Source: Promethearchaeota archaeon (GTDB taxonomy: Archaea; Asgardarchaeota; Lokiarchaeia; Sigyniarchaeales; SOKP01). Taken from it: a stretch of DNA of 64,000 bases. The notes beneath the pieces were generated by a model. The model was given only the letters and a program-made list of their open reading frames with translations. It was not told the origin of the DNA and searched no databases. The position numbers were made by a program, and so were the translations under genes. Shown one piece after another: positions 8,690 through 39,120 of the stretch (position 1 is the stretch's first letter; each line of letters opens with the position of its first letter). The stretch is taken from positions 10,129 to 74,128 of the forward strand of contig JAUWGH010000005.1 in the NCBI GenBank assembly GCA_030606485.1, given 5' to 3'.

Positions 8690-9064
8690 TTAATGAATTT
8701 TAGCGCCACATCCTTGGCAAAATTGGGCGCCTCCTTCAAGTTGTTCTCCACAAAATTGACAATATTTCTGTTTTTCAGGTTCTTGAGATACAACAACTTG
8801 ATTTTGAGATTCTTGATTATATTCCACTTCAGTGGTTTGTAGTTGACTAGATTTAATTTGAGGTATATCACCAGGTGATTGTGACGATACAATAGAACCA
8901 CAGTGAATGCACCTATTCTCGCTTTGTGAGTAATAAATCATAAGGTAAATAATTAATCCGATTCCAGCTGTAAAACATAATAAGATTATTGCTAGTAACA
9001 AATTAATATCTTCTCTTGCAAGGAGCACGTTTTGCTTACATTGATTGCAATATCCATAAGTAAT
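8690..9064 (-). CDS. LITAF-like split zinc ribbon / hydrophobic anchor protein with C-terminal zinc ribbon (paralog 3; ATT start proposed)
   Basis: The track ORF starts at GTG 9028, but the frame is open upstream and reads (ATT)TYGYCNQCKQNVLLAREDINL... This aligns with MPYGYCPNCRQNVLLVREDIDW of the neighbour. GAGG at 9076-9073 lies 8 nt before ATT 9064-9062. C-terminus is YCQFCGEQLEGGAQFCQGCGAKI. Confidence 0.6.
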   Translation of the reverse strand: MTYGYCNQCKQNVLLAREDINLLLAIILLCFTAGIGLIIYLMIYYSQSENRCIHCGSIVSSQSPGDIPQIKSSQLQTTEVEYNQESQNQVVVSQEPEKQKYCQFCGEQLEGGAQFCQGCGAKIH

Positions 9065-9120
9065 TTTTAAAGCCTCTTTTCTTCTATTTTTATTTTTTTG
9101 ATTATTTTTATTCTAAAAGA

Positions 9121-9522
9121 TTATATAATTTTTGCACCACAACCAGAACAGAAACGGGCGTTTTCTTCAATTCTCTCGCCACAATACGGGCAATAGCTTG
9201 CTTTTAATTCTTTCTCAGGAGCGATAAATTGATTTTGTGATACTTCATAAATATTTTGTTGACTAGTTTGAACTTCATAGGGTTGAGAAACTTTCTGATA
9301 AGGAGTTTGAACCTCAATAGGCTGAGAATCTTGCTGTAAACCCGGAACTATAGTATAACAGTGCACACATCTATTTTCTGGCTTAGAGTAATAAATTATG
9401 AGGTATATAATTAGTCCACAACCACAAGTGAAACAAATTAGGAAAAATGCCAACATCCAATCAATATCTTCGCGAACAAGAAGCACGTTTTGGCGACAGT
9501 TTGGGCAATATCCATATGGCAT
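9121..9522 (-). CDS. LITAF-like split zinc ribbon / hydrophobic anchor protein with C-terminal zinc ribbon (paralog 2)
   Basis: 133 aa. Layout: CPNC - 13 aa ending W - 23 hydrophobic aa (MLAFFLICFTCGCGLIIYLIIYY) - 6 aa - CVHC, then a Q/P/E/S-rich repeat linker (QPIEVQT / QPYEVQT), then YCPYCGERIEENARFCSGCGAKI. AGGTGT SD lies 8 nt upstream of the ATG. Confidence 0.7.
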   Translation of the reverse strand: MPYGYCPNCRQNVLLVREDIDWMLAFFLICFTCGCGLIIYLIIYYSKPENRCVHCYTIVPGLQQDSQPIEVQTPYQKVSQPYEVQTSQQNIYEVSQNQFIAPEKELKASYCPYCGERIEENARFCSGCGAKII

Positions 9523-9614
9523 TTTTTTCTACACCTAATGTTTTATTTTTAATAACCTTTATTTTTAAAATATCTACTTAGATATTTAAGGGTTCTATAG
9601 ACCAAATATTAATT

Positions 9615-10133
9615 TCAATCTCCTTCATTTAAATCAGCACCACACGAAGAACAGAGTTCTTGTCCCTCATCTGAAATTTTTGAACCACAAAATGGGCAAA
9701 AAGCAATCCTTCTATAAAAAATAACAGCATTTTTAATCTGTGGAATTTCCTGAACCTGTTTAGGTTCTATTAATTTTTCAGTGGTCTCCATCTCTGACTC
9801 TACAGAACCTGTATGGGTCTCTTCAGTGGGAACTGAATACATTTCTTTCGGTAATTCCAAAGTTTTAGTTAAATCTTGACCTGGAGGTATTATCACTACT
9901 ATATTATTACATTTTTTACACCTATTCTTTTTTCTTCTAAAGTATAGATATATCAGCACGGGTGTTGCTAAACCTAATGTAACAATAAGAACTATCGTCC
10001 ATACTAATATTACACTATCTTTAAATGGTTTTCTTTTAATTTCTACATATTTTTTACAAATCGGACAAAAGTTTAACTGATTTTTCGATATCACTGATTT
10101 TTCAATCTCTAATTCTTCTAATTTTATAATCAT
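9615..10133 (-). CDS. LITAF-like split zinc ribbon / hydrophobic anchor protein with C-terminal zinc ribbon (paralog 1)
   Basis: 172 aa. Layout: FCPICKKYVEIKRKPFKDSVILVW - hydrophobic TIVLIVTLGLATPVLIYLYF - RRKKNR - CKKC, then an acidic/T-rich linker, then FCPFCGSKISDEGQELCSSCGADL. Confidence 0.7.
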   Translation of the reverse strand: MIIKLEELEIEKSVISKNQLNFCPICKKYVEIKRKPFKDSVILVWTIVLIVTLGLATPVLIYLYFRRKKNRCKKCNNIVVIIPPGQDLTKTLELPKEMYSVPTEETHTGSVESEMETTEKLIEPKQVQEIPQIKNAVIFYRRIAFCPFCGSKISDEGQELCSSCGADLNEGD

Positions 10134-10140
10134 AAATATT

Positions 10141-11085
10141 TTATTTAACTTTATTTCCCAATTTTTGATTTAATTTTTCATATTCGTCTGGAAAAAATCT
10201 CCGTAATAATCTAATCCAATCAAATCCAATTAACATTGCTCCAGTTATTAATATGAACCACCCAAAGATCCTAATTACTTCAGCTTTAATATGAAAGATA
10301 TGATATGGAAATATATCAACTGGAAAAAAAATGAAAAAAATTCCCATTGATGATAATATTATACCCAAAAAGTAAGTATTTAGAGGTTTTTCAGTATAGA
10401 ACATATTCTTTTTATCATTTATTGTTTCATTATCATCAATACTTGTATTTTTATCAGAATTGAGGGATAAAAATTTAAAATTTATAACATCTTTCCAATC
10501 TCTTCCCACTAAAAAACTCCCGAAATATAAAAGCAGAGTTAGTAATATTATAAAAACGGTTCCAATAATATGAAATTCAGTTATTAATTTTTCTTTAGAA
10601 ATCCAAGTGAGTCTTAATAAAAATAATCCTATCGCTATTAGTATTAAAATTATACCAGCAAATCCTTCATGCACATGATGTCTCCCCTTTATAATATTAC
10701 TTTCAAATTTATGTTGATATTTTGTAATTAGAAATAGTGAATGAACCGAAAAAAAGGGAGCAATGCAACAAACACAAAGTATTATTATAAATCCCCATTG
10801 AAATAGAGTGAGTTTTGAAAAAATTGAGAAATAAACACAAATAACGAAATTATAGATCCAAGCACCAATACTTATGATATTTGAAACAAAAAATAGATAT
10901 TTATATTTCTTATATTTTAAATTTAAGAAGATAATTAAAAAAATCCACCCTACAATAAAAATGAACATACCCTTATATAATTCATTGCCTTGTGGATGTT
11001 GAAAGTAATTCCAGAAGCCAACGCCAATAAAAATAGCAATTAAAATAAAAACTGATAAAATAATAATAGTATATTTTCTATTCAT
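10141..11085 (-). CDS. polytopic membrane protein, unknown function
   Basis: 314 aa with about 8-9 hydrophobic segments. It ends 7 nt before the first zinc-ribbon paralog on the same strand. Confidence 0.65.
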   Translation of the reverse strand: MNRKYTIIILSVFILIAIFIGVGFWNYFQHPQGNELYKGMFIFIVGWIFLIIFLNLKYKKYKYLFFVSNIISIGAWIYNFVICVYFSIFSKLTLFQWGFIIILCVCCIAPFFSVHSLFLITKYQHKFESNIIKGRHHVHEGFAGIILILIAIGLFLLRLTWISKEKLITEFHIIGTVFIILLTLLLYFGSFLVGRDWKDVINFKFLSLNSDKNTSIDDNETINDKKNMFYTEKPLNTYFLGIILSSMGIFFIFFPVDIFPYHIFHIKAEVIRIFGWFILITGAMLIGFDWIRLLRRFFPDEYEKLNQKLGNKVK

Positions 11086-11131: not shown

Positions 11132-11743
11132 ATGGTCAGAGCGTTTATTGTTTTGGAAGGAATTGACGGAAGCGGAACTACAACCCACTCTCAACTATTA
11201 ACTAAATTTTTAGAAGAAAAGGGATTAAATGTCCACTTAACACAAGAACCATCATCAAGTATAATTGGAGATTTACTAAAAAAGATTTTATTGGATGAAA
11301 ATATTCCTCCTGAAACAGATGCTTTGTTATTTGCTGCTGATAGATACATTCATTATATAAATGAAATTGAGAAAAAACTTGAAAATGGATATATTGTAAT
11401 TTCAGATAGATATCTTGAATCTTCAATTGTGTATCAATCTTCTCAAACAGATCAGATTTCAATTGAATGGATTGAAAATATCAACAAATTCGTTGGAATA
11501 CCAGACATAACTATAATTTTAGATTTACCTCCTAAAGTCTCATTAAAAAGAAAATTATCTCATTTAAAATCTACGGGTAAAAATAAAGAAAAATTTGAAA
11601 ATCTAGACTTTTTAGTAAAAGTACGAAACAGATTTTTAGAGAGGGTAAAGGAGAAAGGATATAAAATCATAAATTCTGAGAATTCTATTGAATTGGTTCA
11701 AAATGAAATTCAAAACTATATAAAAAGCCAATTGAAGTTATGA
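11132..11743 (+). CDS. tmk: thymidylate kinase
   Basis: P-loop LEGIDGSGTTT, with DRY motifs (AADRYIHY, ISDRYLESS). Confidence 0.9.
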   Translation: MVRAFIVLEGIDGSGTTTHSQLLTKFLEEKGLNVHLTQEPSSSIIGDLLKKILLDENIPPETDALLFAADRYIHYINEIEKKLENGYIVISDRYLESSIVYQSSQTDQISIEWIENINKFVGIPDITIILDLPPKVSLKRKLSHLKSTGKNKEKFENLDFLVKVRNRFLERVKEKGYKIINSENSIELVQNEIQNYIKSQLKL

Positions 11744-11808: not shown

Positions 11809-13047
11809 ATGAAAGCCCTAAAACTTATTGCAGACAAATATTTTGATGAGGATATTCTATTTAATCATGTTAAACATTTTTCTTATCCTCGATTATCTGG
11901 ATCTGAAGGTGAAAAGAAAGCAATAAGAGAAGTTGCGGAAACTTTTAAAGAAATTGGTTTTAATGATGCTGAAATAAAGGCAGAAAGTTTTATTTTTTCT
12001 GATTTCTATTCTACAACGTTAATTAAATTTATAATGATGCTTTCTCTTATGAATATGTTCCTGTTTTTTGTCTTCACATATTTTCAGACTATCTTAAACA
12101 CCATTTTAGACTTAGTTTTAATATTAATCTCGGGGATTATTGTATATTTTTTATTAAAAGGTTTAAAGCATCCGGAAGAAACTGCATTTATAGCAAAATA
12201 TTTTGGAAAATTAATTGAATCAAAAAATGTGTTCATAAAAGTTCCTGCAAAAAAAATTGATCCAAATAAAGCCGGAAACATAATATTTTCGGCTCATATT
12301 GATTCAAAATCTCAAGCCTATTCAACAACAATACGTGTTTTTGTTTATAAAGTATGGATATATGCTGGATTTTTTGCAGCAATTTTTATTTTAATAGATA
12401 TCATAATAGACATTGAATGGATAAAAATCGCAGCTAGGATTGCTACAGTTGTAATTATGATAGATAATATAATATTACTGCTTTTAACTACAGGAAATAA
12501 ATCTTCTGGGGCATTAGATAATGCTTGTGGTATGACATGTGTCTTTGAAATTGCAAGATATTTTAGAGAACACCCACTTAATAGTTTTAATGTCTGGTGT
12601 TGTCAATTTGGCGCTGAAGAACTTGGAACTATGGGAAGCCGCAATTTTTGTAAAACTTATGAAGATCAATTTGTAATTGGGAAGATCTTTCAATTCAATT
12701 TTGAGATGCTCGGAATTAAAGGAGTAAAACATAAAGTACAGATGATGGAAAAATATGGCATTCCAAAAAAAAATATCTCTCCCACTTTAATAAAATATTT
12801 AAAAAAAGCTGCCCAAAAAATTGACTTGTATATTGAAGGTTTTTATTTAACAACGGGAGCTCATACTGATACAGTACCTTTTCACCAACGAAACTATGAT
12901 GCAATCGATGTAATGACTCGTGAGAGTGCAATATATGCGCATACAAAAAAAGATACTATAGATAAAGTTGATAAAAGTATTTCAAGAGAAGCATGTTTAA
13001 TAACAGTTCAAGCCGCACTTTTACTTGATAAAAATTTTAAAAAATAA
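11809..13047 (+). CDS. membrane-associated M28-family metallopeptidase
   Basis: 412 aa. FSAHIDSKS (HxD), GALDNACGM, GAEELGTMGS (EE) and HTDTVPFH, with hydrophobic segments between the N-terminal and catalytic parts. Confidence 0.7.
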   Translation: MKALKLIADKYFDEDILFNHVKHFSYPRLSGSEGEKKAIREVAETFKEIGFNDAEIKAESFIFSDFYSTTLIKFIMMLSLMNMFLFFVFTYFQTILNTILDLVLILISGIIVYFLLKGLKHPEETAFIAKYFGKLIESKNVFIKVPAKKIDPNKAGNIIFSAHIDSKSQAYSTTIRVFVYKVWIYAGFFAAIFILIDIIIDIEWIKIAARIATVVIMIDNIILLLLTTGNKSSGALDNACGMTCVFEIARYFREHPLNSFNVWCCQFGAEELGTMGSRNFCKTYEDQFVIGKIFQFNFEMLGIKGVKHKVQMMEKYGIPKKNISPTLIKYLKKAAQKIDLYIEGFYLTTGAHTDTVPFHQRNYDAIDVMTRESAIYAHTKKDTIDKVDKSISREACLITVQAALLLDKNFKK

Positions 13048-33743: not shown

Positions 33744-33847
33744 TGGGATGGGAGGGATTCGAACCCCCGACCTCTTGGCCCCCAGCCAAGAATTACGCTG
33801 TAAAGAATAAGTCTTTACAGAATCATACCAAGCTAGACCACCATCCC
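33744..33847 (-). tRNA. tRNA-Pro(GGG) with 30-nt intron at non-canonical position 25/26
   Basis: Minus-strand read: GGGATGG TG GTCT AGCTTGGTA TGAT [tCTGTAAAG ACTTATT CTTTACAG CGTAAT] T CTTGG CTGGGGG CCAAG AGGTC GGGGG TTCGAAT CCCTC CCATCCC A. Anticodon GGG, G37, A73, no encoded CCA. The intron is plus-strand 33792-33821. Confidence 0.75.
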
Positions 33848-39019: not shown

Positions 39020-39111
39020 GGACCCGTCGCGAAGCCCGGATCTCGCACCACCCTCCTAAGATGATCTTCGGGGTAAGGTGGTTTACGGGGGTTCAAATCC
39101 CTCCGGGTCCG
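39020..39111 (+). tRNA. tRNA-Arg(CCU) with 17-nt intron at canonical 37/38
   Basis: GGACCCG TC GCGA AGCCCGGATC TCGC A CCACC CTCCTA [AGATGATCTTCGGGGTA] A GGTGG TTTAC GGGGG TTCAAAT CCCTC CGGGTCC G. Confidence 0.85.
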
Positions 39112-39120
39112 CTAAAAATC

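Follow-up and report, generated by a model that had tools for sequence, protein, structure and literature searches.

A tandem array of small Asgard archaeal zinc-ribbon proteins with a probable LITAF-like membrane-anchor module

Here we describe three neighbouring genes, termed pA, pB and pC, in a 64,000-nucleotide stretch of a Promethearchaeota archaeon genome (contig JAUWGH010000005.1, positions 10,129 to 74,128 of the forward strand), referred to below as the window. Each encodes a small protein in which two CxxC knuckles bracket a hydrophobic segment near the N-terminus and a conventional zinc ribbon closes the C-terminus. In the reading we prefer, to which we assign a probability of roughly 65%, the genes belong to an ancient cluster, spread across Asgard archaea, that encodes small membrane-associated zinc proteins; their N-terminal ~60 residues would form a divergent LITAF-like domain, and each protein would serve as a monotopic adaptor. 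The architecture, its conservation, the purifying selection, the link to LITAF at profile level and the prediction of a helix-break-helix are established. The elements of the array are listed here by position in the window.

9615..10133, minus strand: pA, the type-A paralog; open reading frame (ORF) of 172 residues from the ATG at 10133, more probably 159 residues from the GTG at 10094
9897..10073, minus strand: putative LITAF-like module of pA, residues 21-79 in ATG numbering, with CPIC at 23-26 and CKKC at 72-75
9939..10016, minus strand: hydrophobic segment of pA, SVILVWTIVLIVTLGLATPVLIYLYF, a helical hairpin as predicted by AlphaFold2; flank net charges +4 and +5
9630..9701, minus strand: C-terminal four-Cys zinc ribbon of pA, CPFCG...CSSCG; Pfam DZR 27.8 bits (cut-off 27.3), Zn_Ribbon_1 23.2 bits
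9121..9522, minus strand: pB, type-B paralog, an ORF of 133 residues with an ATG start; more than 100 homologs from Asgard metagenome-assembled genomes (MAGs)
9352..9510, minus strand: putative LITAF-like module of pB, residues 5-57, with CPNC at 6-9 and CVHC at 52-55; from PF10601, AlphaFold2 and hhalign
9385-9459, minus strand: hydrophobic segment of pB, residues 22-46
9196..9351, minus strand: disordered Q/P/E/S-rich linker of pB, with a QPIEVQT/QPYEVQT repeat and two PY dipeptides; AlphaFold2 predicted local distance difference test (pLDDT) score below 50 over residues 64-107
9130..9195, minus strand: C-terminal zinc ribbon of pB, CPYCG...CSGCG; Pfam Zn_Ribbon_1 35.3 bits (cut-off 25)
8690..9064, minus strand: pC, the second type-B paralog, 124 residues if started at the ATT at 9064-9062
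8900..9049, minus strand: split-ribbon module of pC from a six-frame scan, with CNQC at 9038-9049, the hydrophobic segment at 8927-9001 and CIHC at 8900-8911
8699..8764, minus strand: C-terminal zinc ribbon of pC, CQFCG...CQGCG; Pfam Zn_Ribbon_1 27.7 bits, DZR 30.5 bits

That three same-strand paralogs share a CxxC-hydrophobic-CxxC layout was the core of an original prediction made from the bare sequence, and the minus-strand ORFs bear it out. After the first CxxC come 12-13 flanking residues and then an uncharged, hydrophobic run 25-26 residues in length. Another 5-6 residues, all polar, lead to the second CxxC, and each protein then continues through a low-complexity linker of ~45 residues into a C-terminal CxxCG-x9-10-CxxCG ribbon. 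The order in pA is CPIC, 19 residues to a Trp, the hydrophobic stretch, RRKKNR and CKKC; pB runs from CPNC over 13 residues to a Trp, then through MLAFFLICFTCGCGLIIYLIIYY and SKPENR to CVHC; and pC, whose module is 65% identical to that of pB, runs from CNQC over 13 residues to a Leu, then through LLAIILLCFTAGIGLIIYLMIYY and SQSENR to CIHC. Two details of the prediction need amending: the Trp said to end the flank in every paralog is found in pA and pB and replaced by Leu in pC, and of the two paralogs described as Cys/Gly-rich in the hydrophobic run only pB truly is, the family consensus of this run being FTAGIG.

Scanning all six frames of the 64-kb window for two CxxC motifs separated by 38-50 residues that include a hydrophobic 20-mer returned these three modules only. 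The spacing between knuckles is exactly 42 residues in 89 homologous sequences and 45 in the pA group. An alignment of 42 modules shows the four Cys, V12 and R16 to be invariant and T31, G33 and R50 nearly so; a near-invariant T-x-G thus marks the centre of the hydrophobic run, and a near-invariant Arg precedes the second knuckle. The uncharged run has a median length of 20-24.5 residues, depending on paralog type, among 162 Asgard modules. Evolutionarily, the non-synonymous to synonymous substitution ratio (dN/dS) relative to the ABR01 genome is 0.31 for pA, 0.23 for pB and 0.41 for pC, and 0.14-0.26 for the N-terminal modules alone; by this measure, purifying selection acts on all three genes, most tightly on the split ribbon. 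Given its uniqueness in the scan, the fixed knuckle spacing and these ratios, the layout is not due to chance.

The family extends well beyond this genome, with more than 100 homologs of pB in a protein collection clustered at 90% identity, the named ones being NCBI "zinc-ribbon domain-containing protein" entries from Promethearchaeota, Thorarchaeota or Hodarchaeota. When each GTDB species, represented by a single genome, was surveyed with two very specific type-B peptide patterns, 70 loci were returned, all from Asgard archaea (Promethearchaeota/Lokiarchaeia, Thor-, Hod-, Hermod- and Odinarchaeota), a restriction that describes the type-B subfamily those patterns recognize. Two to four same-strand tandem copies were found in 60 of these 70 loci, and the paralog types recur in the same order, i.e., type A (spacer of 45-47 residues), type B (42) and often type C (40-43). 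Judging from this recurrence, the array is a set of ancient paralog types that is conserved across Asgard lineages and predates their split. The phrase "amplified in tandem" of the original prediction fits the array, but not the recent event that it suggests. Type A is represented here by pA and type B by pB and pC, type C being found elsewhere; that such types are kept side by side suggests distinct roles or partners, or co-assembly, and hetero-assembly of the different types would be one form of this.

At the level of the family, the link to LITAF is firm as far as profile comparisons can tell. The Pfam model of the domain (PF10601, zf-LITAF-like, length 70, gathering threshold 23.8 bits) aligns with pA at 22.0-22.4 bits (E 1.8e-4) over model positions 6-66 (61 of 70), with pB at 15.2 bits (E 0.024) over positions 7-64, and with pC at 9.4 bits (E 1.6). 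This profile search, which the original prediction had proposed, therefore covers pA end to end just below the threshold; all 20 type-A relatives match the model (best E 1.7e-8), as do, at E ≤ 0.01, 49 of 88 family homologs (best E 4.3e-6). Searching 1.84 billion representative proteins with a profile of the module yielded 433 clusters at E ≤ 1e-3, and 33 of 71 more distant matches of this profile also hit PF10601 at E ≤ 0.01 (best E 1.4e-9). One protein (P0185) scores 27.4 bits (E 3.9e-6), and the best E-values of the family, type-A and distant sets imply that there are relatives which pass the threshold. In the protein collection, PF10601 has already been assigned automatically to some Asgard proteins.

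Direct profile-profile comparison agrees with this. The type-A consensus reads YAYCxxCxKE..KPKRK..D..YY.VWI...ASxGF..I..L.IY.F..KK..CPxC..L.FY, and hhalign aligns the type-A module with vertebrate LITAF domains at 76-81% probability (E 1-2e-5, 56-61 columns; the vertebrate-only alignment is narrow, with ~1.9 effective sequences, and its human LITAF query was confirmed by 100%-identical database matches and by orthologs named LITAF). The aligned columns span the first knuckle, the anchor, the second knuckle and an aromatic residue (Y/F) after it, and include the Pro of the anchor. In type-A orthologs of other Asgard lineages the second knuckle reads [YF]CPxC, followed by FY, which hhalign pairs with YCPNC...TYK of LITAF. 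Reversed-sequence controls, in which composition and CxxC pattern are preserved, reach only 8% and 0.5%. Type A and type B (pB, pC) align with each other at 97.8% (E 1e-12; reversed controls ≤15%). Type B is joined to LITAF only through type A, and the homology argument runs from B to A and from A to LITAF, with the Pfam model in addition. Feature by feature, the first knuckle (CPIC, CPNC or CNQC) is of the LITAF kind, AlphaFold2 puts this knuckle at a beta-hairpin turn, and the hydrophobic segment between knuckles, ~20-30 residues in LITAF domains, measures 25-26 in all three proteins.

Structure prediction points the same way. The AlphaFold2 model of pB, built from an 88-sequence alignment, has pLDDT values of 88-96 over residues 1-60, a disordered linker (64-107) and a C-terminal ribbon at ~80; its N-terminal secondary structure consists of strands 3-6 and 11-16, helix 22-31, a break at T-C-G, helix 35-46 and strand 51-52. 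For the pA module alone, the model gives strands 2-5 and 10-16, helix 23-35, a break, helix 38-48 and strand 52-54. Since the latter model contains no other strand, strand 52-54 can pair solely with the N-terminal hairpin, and both ends of the anchor consequently meet in the model, which suggests that the four Cys of the module may converge on one zinc site. The predicted helix-break-helix at the conserved T-x-G also answers to the helical hairpin, rather than single span, that the original prediction had envisaged. In type-A modules, Lys plus Arg residues average 4.7 in the flank ahead of the segment and 3.1 in the one after it, and such basic flanks on both sides (strongly so in pA) argue against export of either of them under the positive-inside rule. 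Both ends of the hydrophobic segment would then be cytosolic, with the segment inserted monotopically. For human LITAF, monotopic insertion and zinc binding have been shown experimentally (Ho et al. 2016, PMC5142333), and a split zinc ribbon with a helical hairpin has been both proposed and tested (PMC5142333).

It is thus tempting to propose the following organization. The two CxxC knuckles around the hydrophobic segment would fold into one three-stranded zinc ribbon with a single Zn2+, and the 25-26-residue segment would double back at the T-x-G as two short helices of 10-13 residues each. This hairpin may enter the cytoplasmic leaflet without crossing the membrane, which would make the protein monotopic like human LITAF, with the zinc knuckles clamping the base of the hairpin and basic residues beside them (R16 and R50, or the K/R-rich collar of pA) touching lipid head groups. 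The disordered linker of ~45 residues would carry the second, four-Cys zinc ribbon on the cytoplasmic side, probably for binding to a partner, and the protein as a whole may act as a membrane tether or adaptor.

Several observations weigh against a LITAF-like monotopic module. No protein of the window reaches the PF10601 gathering score, so that all are non-members by Pfam's own rule, and the second knuckle reads N-R-C-x-x-C (NRCKKC, NRCVHC, NRCIHC), with neither His nor Pro, so that the H-x-C-P signature of LITAF domains, which there precedes a conserved G/aromatic-basic tail, is absent. Compared directly with vertebrate LITAF by hhalign, type B (mixed or type-B alignment) aligns a single knuckle at 26%. 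The model of the pA module is moderately confident (pLDDT 73.6), AlphaFold2 represents neither membranes nor metals, the convergence of the Cys is deduced from secondary structure, and a hydrophobic stretch of 25 residues has the length needed to cross a bilayer. In types B and C the flanks are near-neutral, which renders charge uninformative on their topology. A BFVD fold search with the pA module gave nothing significant, its second match being a viral LITAF-domain protein (E 0.47, template modelling score 0.39), and the conserved neighbours of the array are housekeeping genes that indicate no partner or pathway. On balance, the LITAF reading of the N-terminal modules is largely supported: the PF10601 and hhalign alignments uphold the LITAF-like module of the original prediction, and the sub-threshold scores and missing H-x-C-P qualify it for the window proteins themselves.

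The relationship to eukaryotic LITAF can be taken in two directions from here. A bolder, tentative possibility is that the tandem cluster is the archaeal ancestor of eukaryotic LITAF/CDIP1, already multi-paralog in the last Asgard common ancestor and tethering cytoplasmic partners through its monotopic hairpin. Conversely, the Asgard proteins could work on the same principle as LITAF and have arisen independently, by convergence in a very simple motif rather than by common descent. The domain is indeed short and largely made up of its hydrophobic stretch and the two CxxC knuckles, hhalign matches vertebrate LITAF at just 76-81% probability, type B has no direct link to it, the domain order is inverted (anchor N-terminal, linker C-terminal), and comparable modules occur in metagenomic proteins of which at least one is bacterial (from a Sarcina MAG). 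We nevertheless consider independent origin unlikely, as the reversed controls fall to ≤8% despite unchanged composition and CxxC pattern, type-A members reach E 1.7e-8 on a Pfam model built largely from eukaryotic sequences, and the alignment also includes the Pro in the second half of the anchor, the [YF]-C-P-x-C of type-A orthologs and the aromatic residue after the second knuckle.

A different view of the same proteins would make them ordinary single-pass membrane proteins with a true transmembrane helix, the N-terminal CxxC outside and the second CxxC inside, and only superficially similar to LITAF. Zinc-ribbon proteins with a transmembrane helix are very common in prokaryotes, and a hydrophobic run of 25-26 residues in the window proteins (or of the median lengths seen across types) is long enough for a bilayer; type-B flanks, with a slight negative charge ahead of the segment and a slight positive one after it, fit an N-out/C-in orientation, and the scores below the Pfam threshold are likewise compatible with it. 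However, a lone CxxC on each side of the membrane would have no obvious role, yet the four Cys are invariant and their spacing fixed. Translocation of an N flank with 4-6 Lys/Arg, as in pA and type A, is disfavoured by the positive-inside rule; in the AlphaFold2 models the helix is interrupted at T-x-G and the strand behind the anchor joins the N-terminal hairpin; and the full-length alignments obtained with PF10601 and hhalign are sensitive to residue order. Single-pass topology thus appears distinctly improbable, and the LITAF-like monotopic module remains our preferred reading.

Compared with known systems, the closest are eukaryotic LITAF/SIMPLE and CDIP1 (PF10601, SMART SM00714), with which the Asgard proteins share a CxxC after a beta-hairpin, a second CxxC knuckle, a hydrophobic segment of ~25 residues that is rich in small residues and has a Pro or Gly break, a profile alignment from end to end, a predicted helix-break-helix anchor with the knuckles together, and a disordered Pro/Gln-rich region joined to the anchor. 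They differ in that LITAF has its PPxY/PSAP region at the N-terminus and its anchor at the C-terminus, whereas the Asgard proteins begin with the anchor, continue with the disordered region and end in an additional zinc ribbon. The knuckle spacer is 42-47 residues long in the Asgard proteins vs. ~49 in human LITAF, and the window proteins have N-R-C-x-x-C in place of H-x-C-P-x-C and, unlike LITAF, score below the Pfam gathering threshold. Their host is an archaeon with no known endosomes. The viral match mentioned above is Q5YFC9 of Singapore grouper iridovirus, a LITAF-domain protein aligned over 63 columns, at most a hint given its lack of significance. The PDB contains no LITAF domain, and neither BFVD nor the PDB yielded a significant fold match to the pB model at full length. 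Generic small-ribbon matches of pB (NZF, RanBP2, ArnA) involved the 25-residue C-terminal ribbon alone at E > 1, from which we draw no inference of ubiquitin binding.

The C-terminal parts are more conventional. A classical zinc ribbon had been predicted for all three proteins, and each passes a curated Pfam gathering cut-off, pB and pC (35.3 and 27.7 bits) that of Zn_Ribbon_1 (PF13240, 25 bits) and pA (27.8 bits) that of DZR (PF12773, 27.3 bits), so that the CPxCG-x9-10-CxxCG ribbons are standard members of these families. The generic zinc-ribbon label covers the last ~25 residues and passes over the N-terminal split ribbon, conserved and interrupted by a hydrophobic insert; NCBIfam gave no meaningful match. 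The QPIEVQT/QPYEVQT repeat noted earlier is indeed present in pB, and Tandem Repeats Finder does not detect it at the DNA level. Type-B linkers are rich in PY dipeptides (54 of 106 observed vs. 19 expected by shuffling, as raw counts uncorrected for relatedness), often in an NPY or QPY context. Type-A linkers have a conserved FY..PEE.P.PK followed by a predicted helical RIL..IE.EKK stretch, type-C linkers a SNYQ motif, and one homolog (P0017) has three PQPYEV repeats. From this repetition, the linkers seem to evolve through short repeat expansion, and we speculate that their type-specific motifs may be short binding motifs.

The phyletic survey suggested by the original prediction gave the 70 Asgard loci, and profile searches found similar split-ribbon modules beyond Asgard as well, in metagenomic proteins including the one from the Sarcina MAG, so that the layout is shared more widely than by Asgard archaea and eukaryotes. 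The module profile finds such small metagenomic or bacterial CxxC-hydrophobic-CxxC proteins at E 1e-7 to 1e-10; they share the three-part layout and are mostly module-only (55-90 residues) or have other C-terminal regions, many scoring below the Pfam threshold, and the Sarcina example has no PF10601 match at E ≤ 0.01. Among proteins with this layout we also observed a probably non-Asgard subgroup (P0208, P0217, P0218, P0223, P0224, P0227, P0229, P0234, P0236, P0240, P0244 and P0248) with the motif NHILHLLLTILTGGLWLIVWL...WRCxxCG, some members of which match DUF4234 (PF14018) weakly and some of which have C-terminal extensions, up to 371 residues.

The surroundings of the array include the following genes.

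10141..11085, minus strand: 314-residue polytopic membrane protein upstream of the array, a lineage-specific neighbour outside the conserved cluster
11132-11743, plus strand: thymidylate kinase gene (tmk), divergent from the array, from Pfam labels of orthologs
11809-13047, plus strand: M28-family peptidase, divergent from the array, from Pfam labels of orthologs

The window is AT-rich (GC content 23-33%) and most closely related to Promethearchaeota/Promethearchaeia (Lokiarchaeia-type) MAGs, namely isolates 6H3_1 and ABR01. Across the surveyed loci the array is divergent from tmk (63 of 70) and from the M28 peptidase (54 of 70), always on the opposite strand. The array keeps a fixed place on the chromosome in a strongly conserved neighbourhood. 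Aconitase subunits, the M28 peptidase and tmk occupy one side of it in the 70 Asgard loci (L007-L076), and the other side, with genes of the shikimate pathway, harbours shikimate dehydrogenase, prephenate dehydrogenase-like, flavin reductase-like and shikimate kinase-like genes. The 314-residue protein, in contrast, occurs in just 3 of the 70 related loci, those of the closest relatives, and from this distribution it appears to be an insertion, specific to this lineage, that separated the array from tmk. Its best Pfam match (20.3 bits) is below the cut-off and not significant, and NCBIfam has no match to it. A TldD/PmbA pair downstream, found in 2-3 of the 70 loci, is likewise lineage-specific.

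The original prediction had joined this membrane protein and the three small genes into a four-gene operon, an association that is not conserved and that we abandon. In its functional form, with the small proteins as accessory subunits of the membrane protein, such an operon would account for four genes on one strand, for a short gap between the membrane protein and pA (7 nt from the ATG, 46 nt from the GTG, 29 nt in the L001 ortholog) and for the retention of this arrangement in the closest relatives. It is very unlikely all the same: at the other loci the array directly abuts the divergent tmk, and AT-rich spacers, ~57 and ~92 nt long, lie between the paralogs and each contain a Shine-Dalgarno-like motif.

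The start codons of the array deserve attention in their own right. For pA, the ATG at 10133 adds 13 residues (MIIKLEELEIEKS) found solely in two near-identical proteins (P0001 and P0005). Eight of 11 database homologs are 158-159 residues long and begin at the position of GTG 10094, where L001 has an ATG. The conserved start is thus probably this GTG, and the gap to the upstream gene accordingly grows from 7 to 46 nt. For pC, the sole canonical start is GTG 9028, downstream of the first CxxC, and ORF callers beginning there produce a 112-residue protein that lacks this motif; the CxxC with which all three proteins were said to start therefore lies, in pC, ahead of any canonical start, in a frame that stays open upstream to the ATT at 9064-9062. 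The resulting I-T-Y-G-Y-C-N-Q-C matches M-P-Y-G-Y-C-P-N-C of pB codon by codon. In four related genomes the upstream codons, including the CxxC, are kept in frame with synonymous changes, and all four have AAA-ATT four codons ahead of the Cys, with GAGG 9 nt upstream; the internal GTG reads GTA in two of them (L002 and L004). Were pC a decaying pseudogene that had lost its start codon and N-terminal knuckle, as the missing ATG, GTG or TTG ahead of the CxxC and the callers' internal start might intimate, neither this conservation, nor dN/dS values of 0.41 overall and 0.26 in the module, nor the retention of all eight Cys would be expected, and the idea is hardly credible.

The same peculiarity was observed elsewhere. 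In eight type-B modules of four related Lokiarchaeia MAGs, as in pC, no ATG, GTG or TTG occurs between the upstream stop and the first CxxC. The candidate ATT codons (at ~4001 and 4491 in L007, at the equivalent positions in L008, L009 and L010, and at 9062-9064 in the window) share the context AAA-ATT-xCx-yAT-GGA-TAT-TGY, with a Shine-Dalgarno-like GAGG or GGTG 8-10 nt upstream, and pB of the window has an ATG where its orthologs have ATT. From this shared context, ATT is the apparent initiation codon of pC and of these eight modules. Homologs of pB and pC are commonly shortened to internal starts in the databases (P0012-P0014, P0018-P0020, P0037-P0039, P0044 and P0065), as 121-122-residue "MLLVRED..." proteins, 81-residue "MHCY..." proteins or 103/112-residue forms of pC. 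Since such starts remove the first CxxC or the whole anchor, the LITAF-like domain is hidden from automatic annotation. The lesson for annotation is that non-canonical ATT starts and short N-termini lead to genes being labelled as generic "zinc-ribbon" proteins.

Two further genes of the window were each reported by a single tool, namely a 104-nt tRNA-like gene at 33744-33847 on the minus strand (Rfam only) and a 93-nt tRNA-Arg(CCT)-like gene at 39020-39112 on the plus strand (ARAGORN only), and their lengths suggest intron-containing archaeal tRNAs.

In the literature, LITAF domains are described as "conserved in eukaryotes" (PMC5142333). Full-text searches retrieved no paper that pairs LITAF with Asgard, Loki-, Heimdall-, Thor- or Prometheoarchaea, and no discussion of LITAF domains in prokaryotes. 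No LITAF entry occurs in the supplements of Eme et al. 2023 (supplementary tables of eukaryotic signature proteins from other papers lay outside this search), and the single "litaf" string in Asgard supplements of this kind consists of chance letters inside a protein sequence. The earlier claim that an archaeal LITAF-like tandem had not been described before is in keeping with these searches.

Taken together, homology and conservation are solid enough to warrant experiments, with zinc binding, topology and function standing as predictions. A multi-paralog cluster conserved at a fixed position across Loki-, Thor-, Hod-, Hermod- and Odin-type genomes would provide a prokaryotic root for the monotopic anchor and add a candidate to the membrane-remodelling parts that are older than eukaryotes. 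Its small, bacterially expressible proteins would also offer a means of determining the still-unsolved LITAF fold. If the array is in fact ancestral to LITAF/CDIP1, it would represent an overlooked "eukaryotic signature" membrane-anchor module, present also in Hodarchaeales, the proposed sister group of eukaryotes, and the partners that it tethers to the membrane could conceivably be components of the endosomal sorting complexes required for transport (ESCRT) or of the ubiquitin system.

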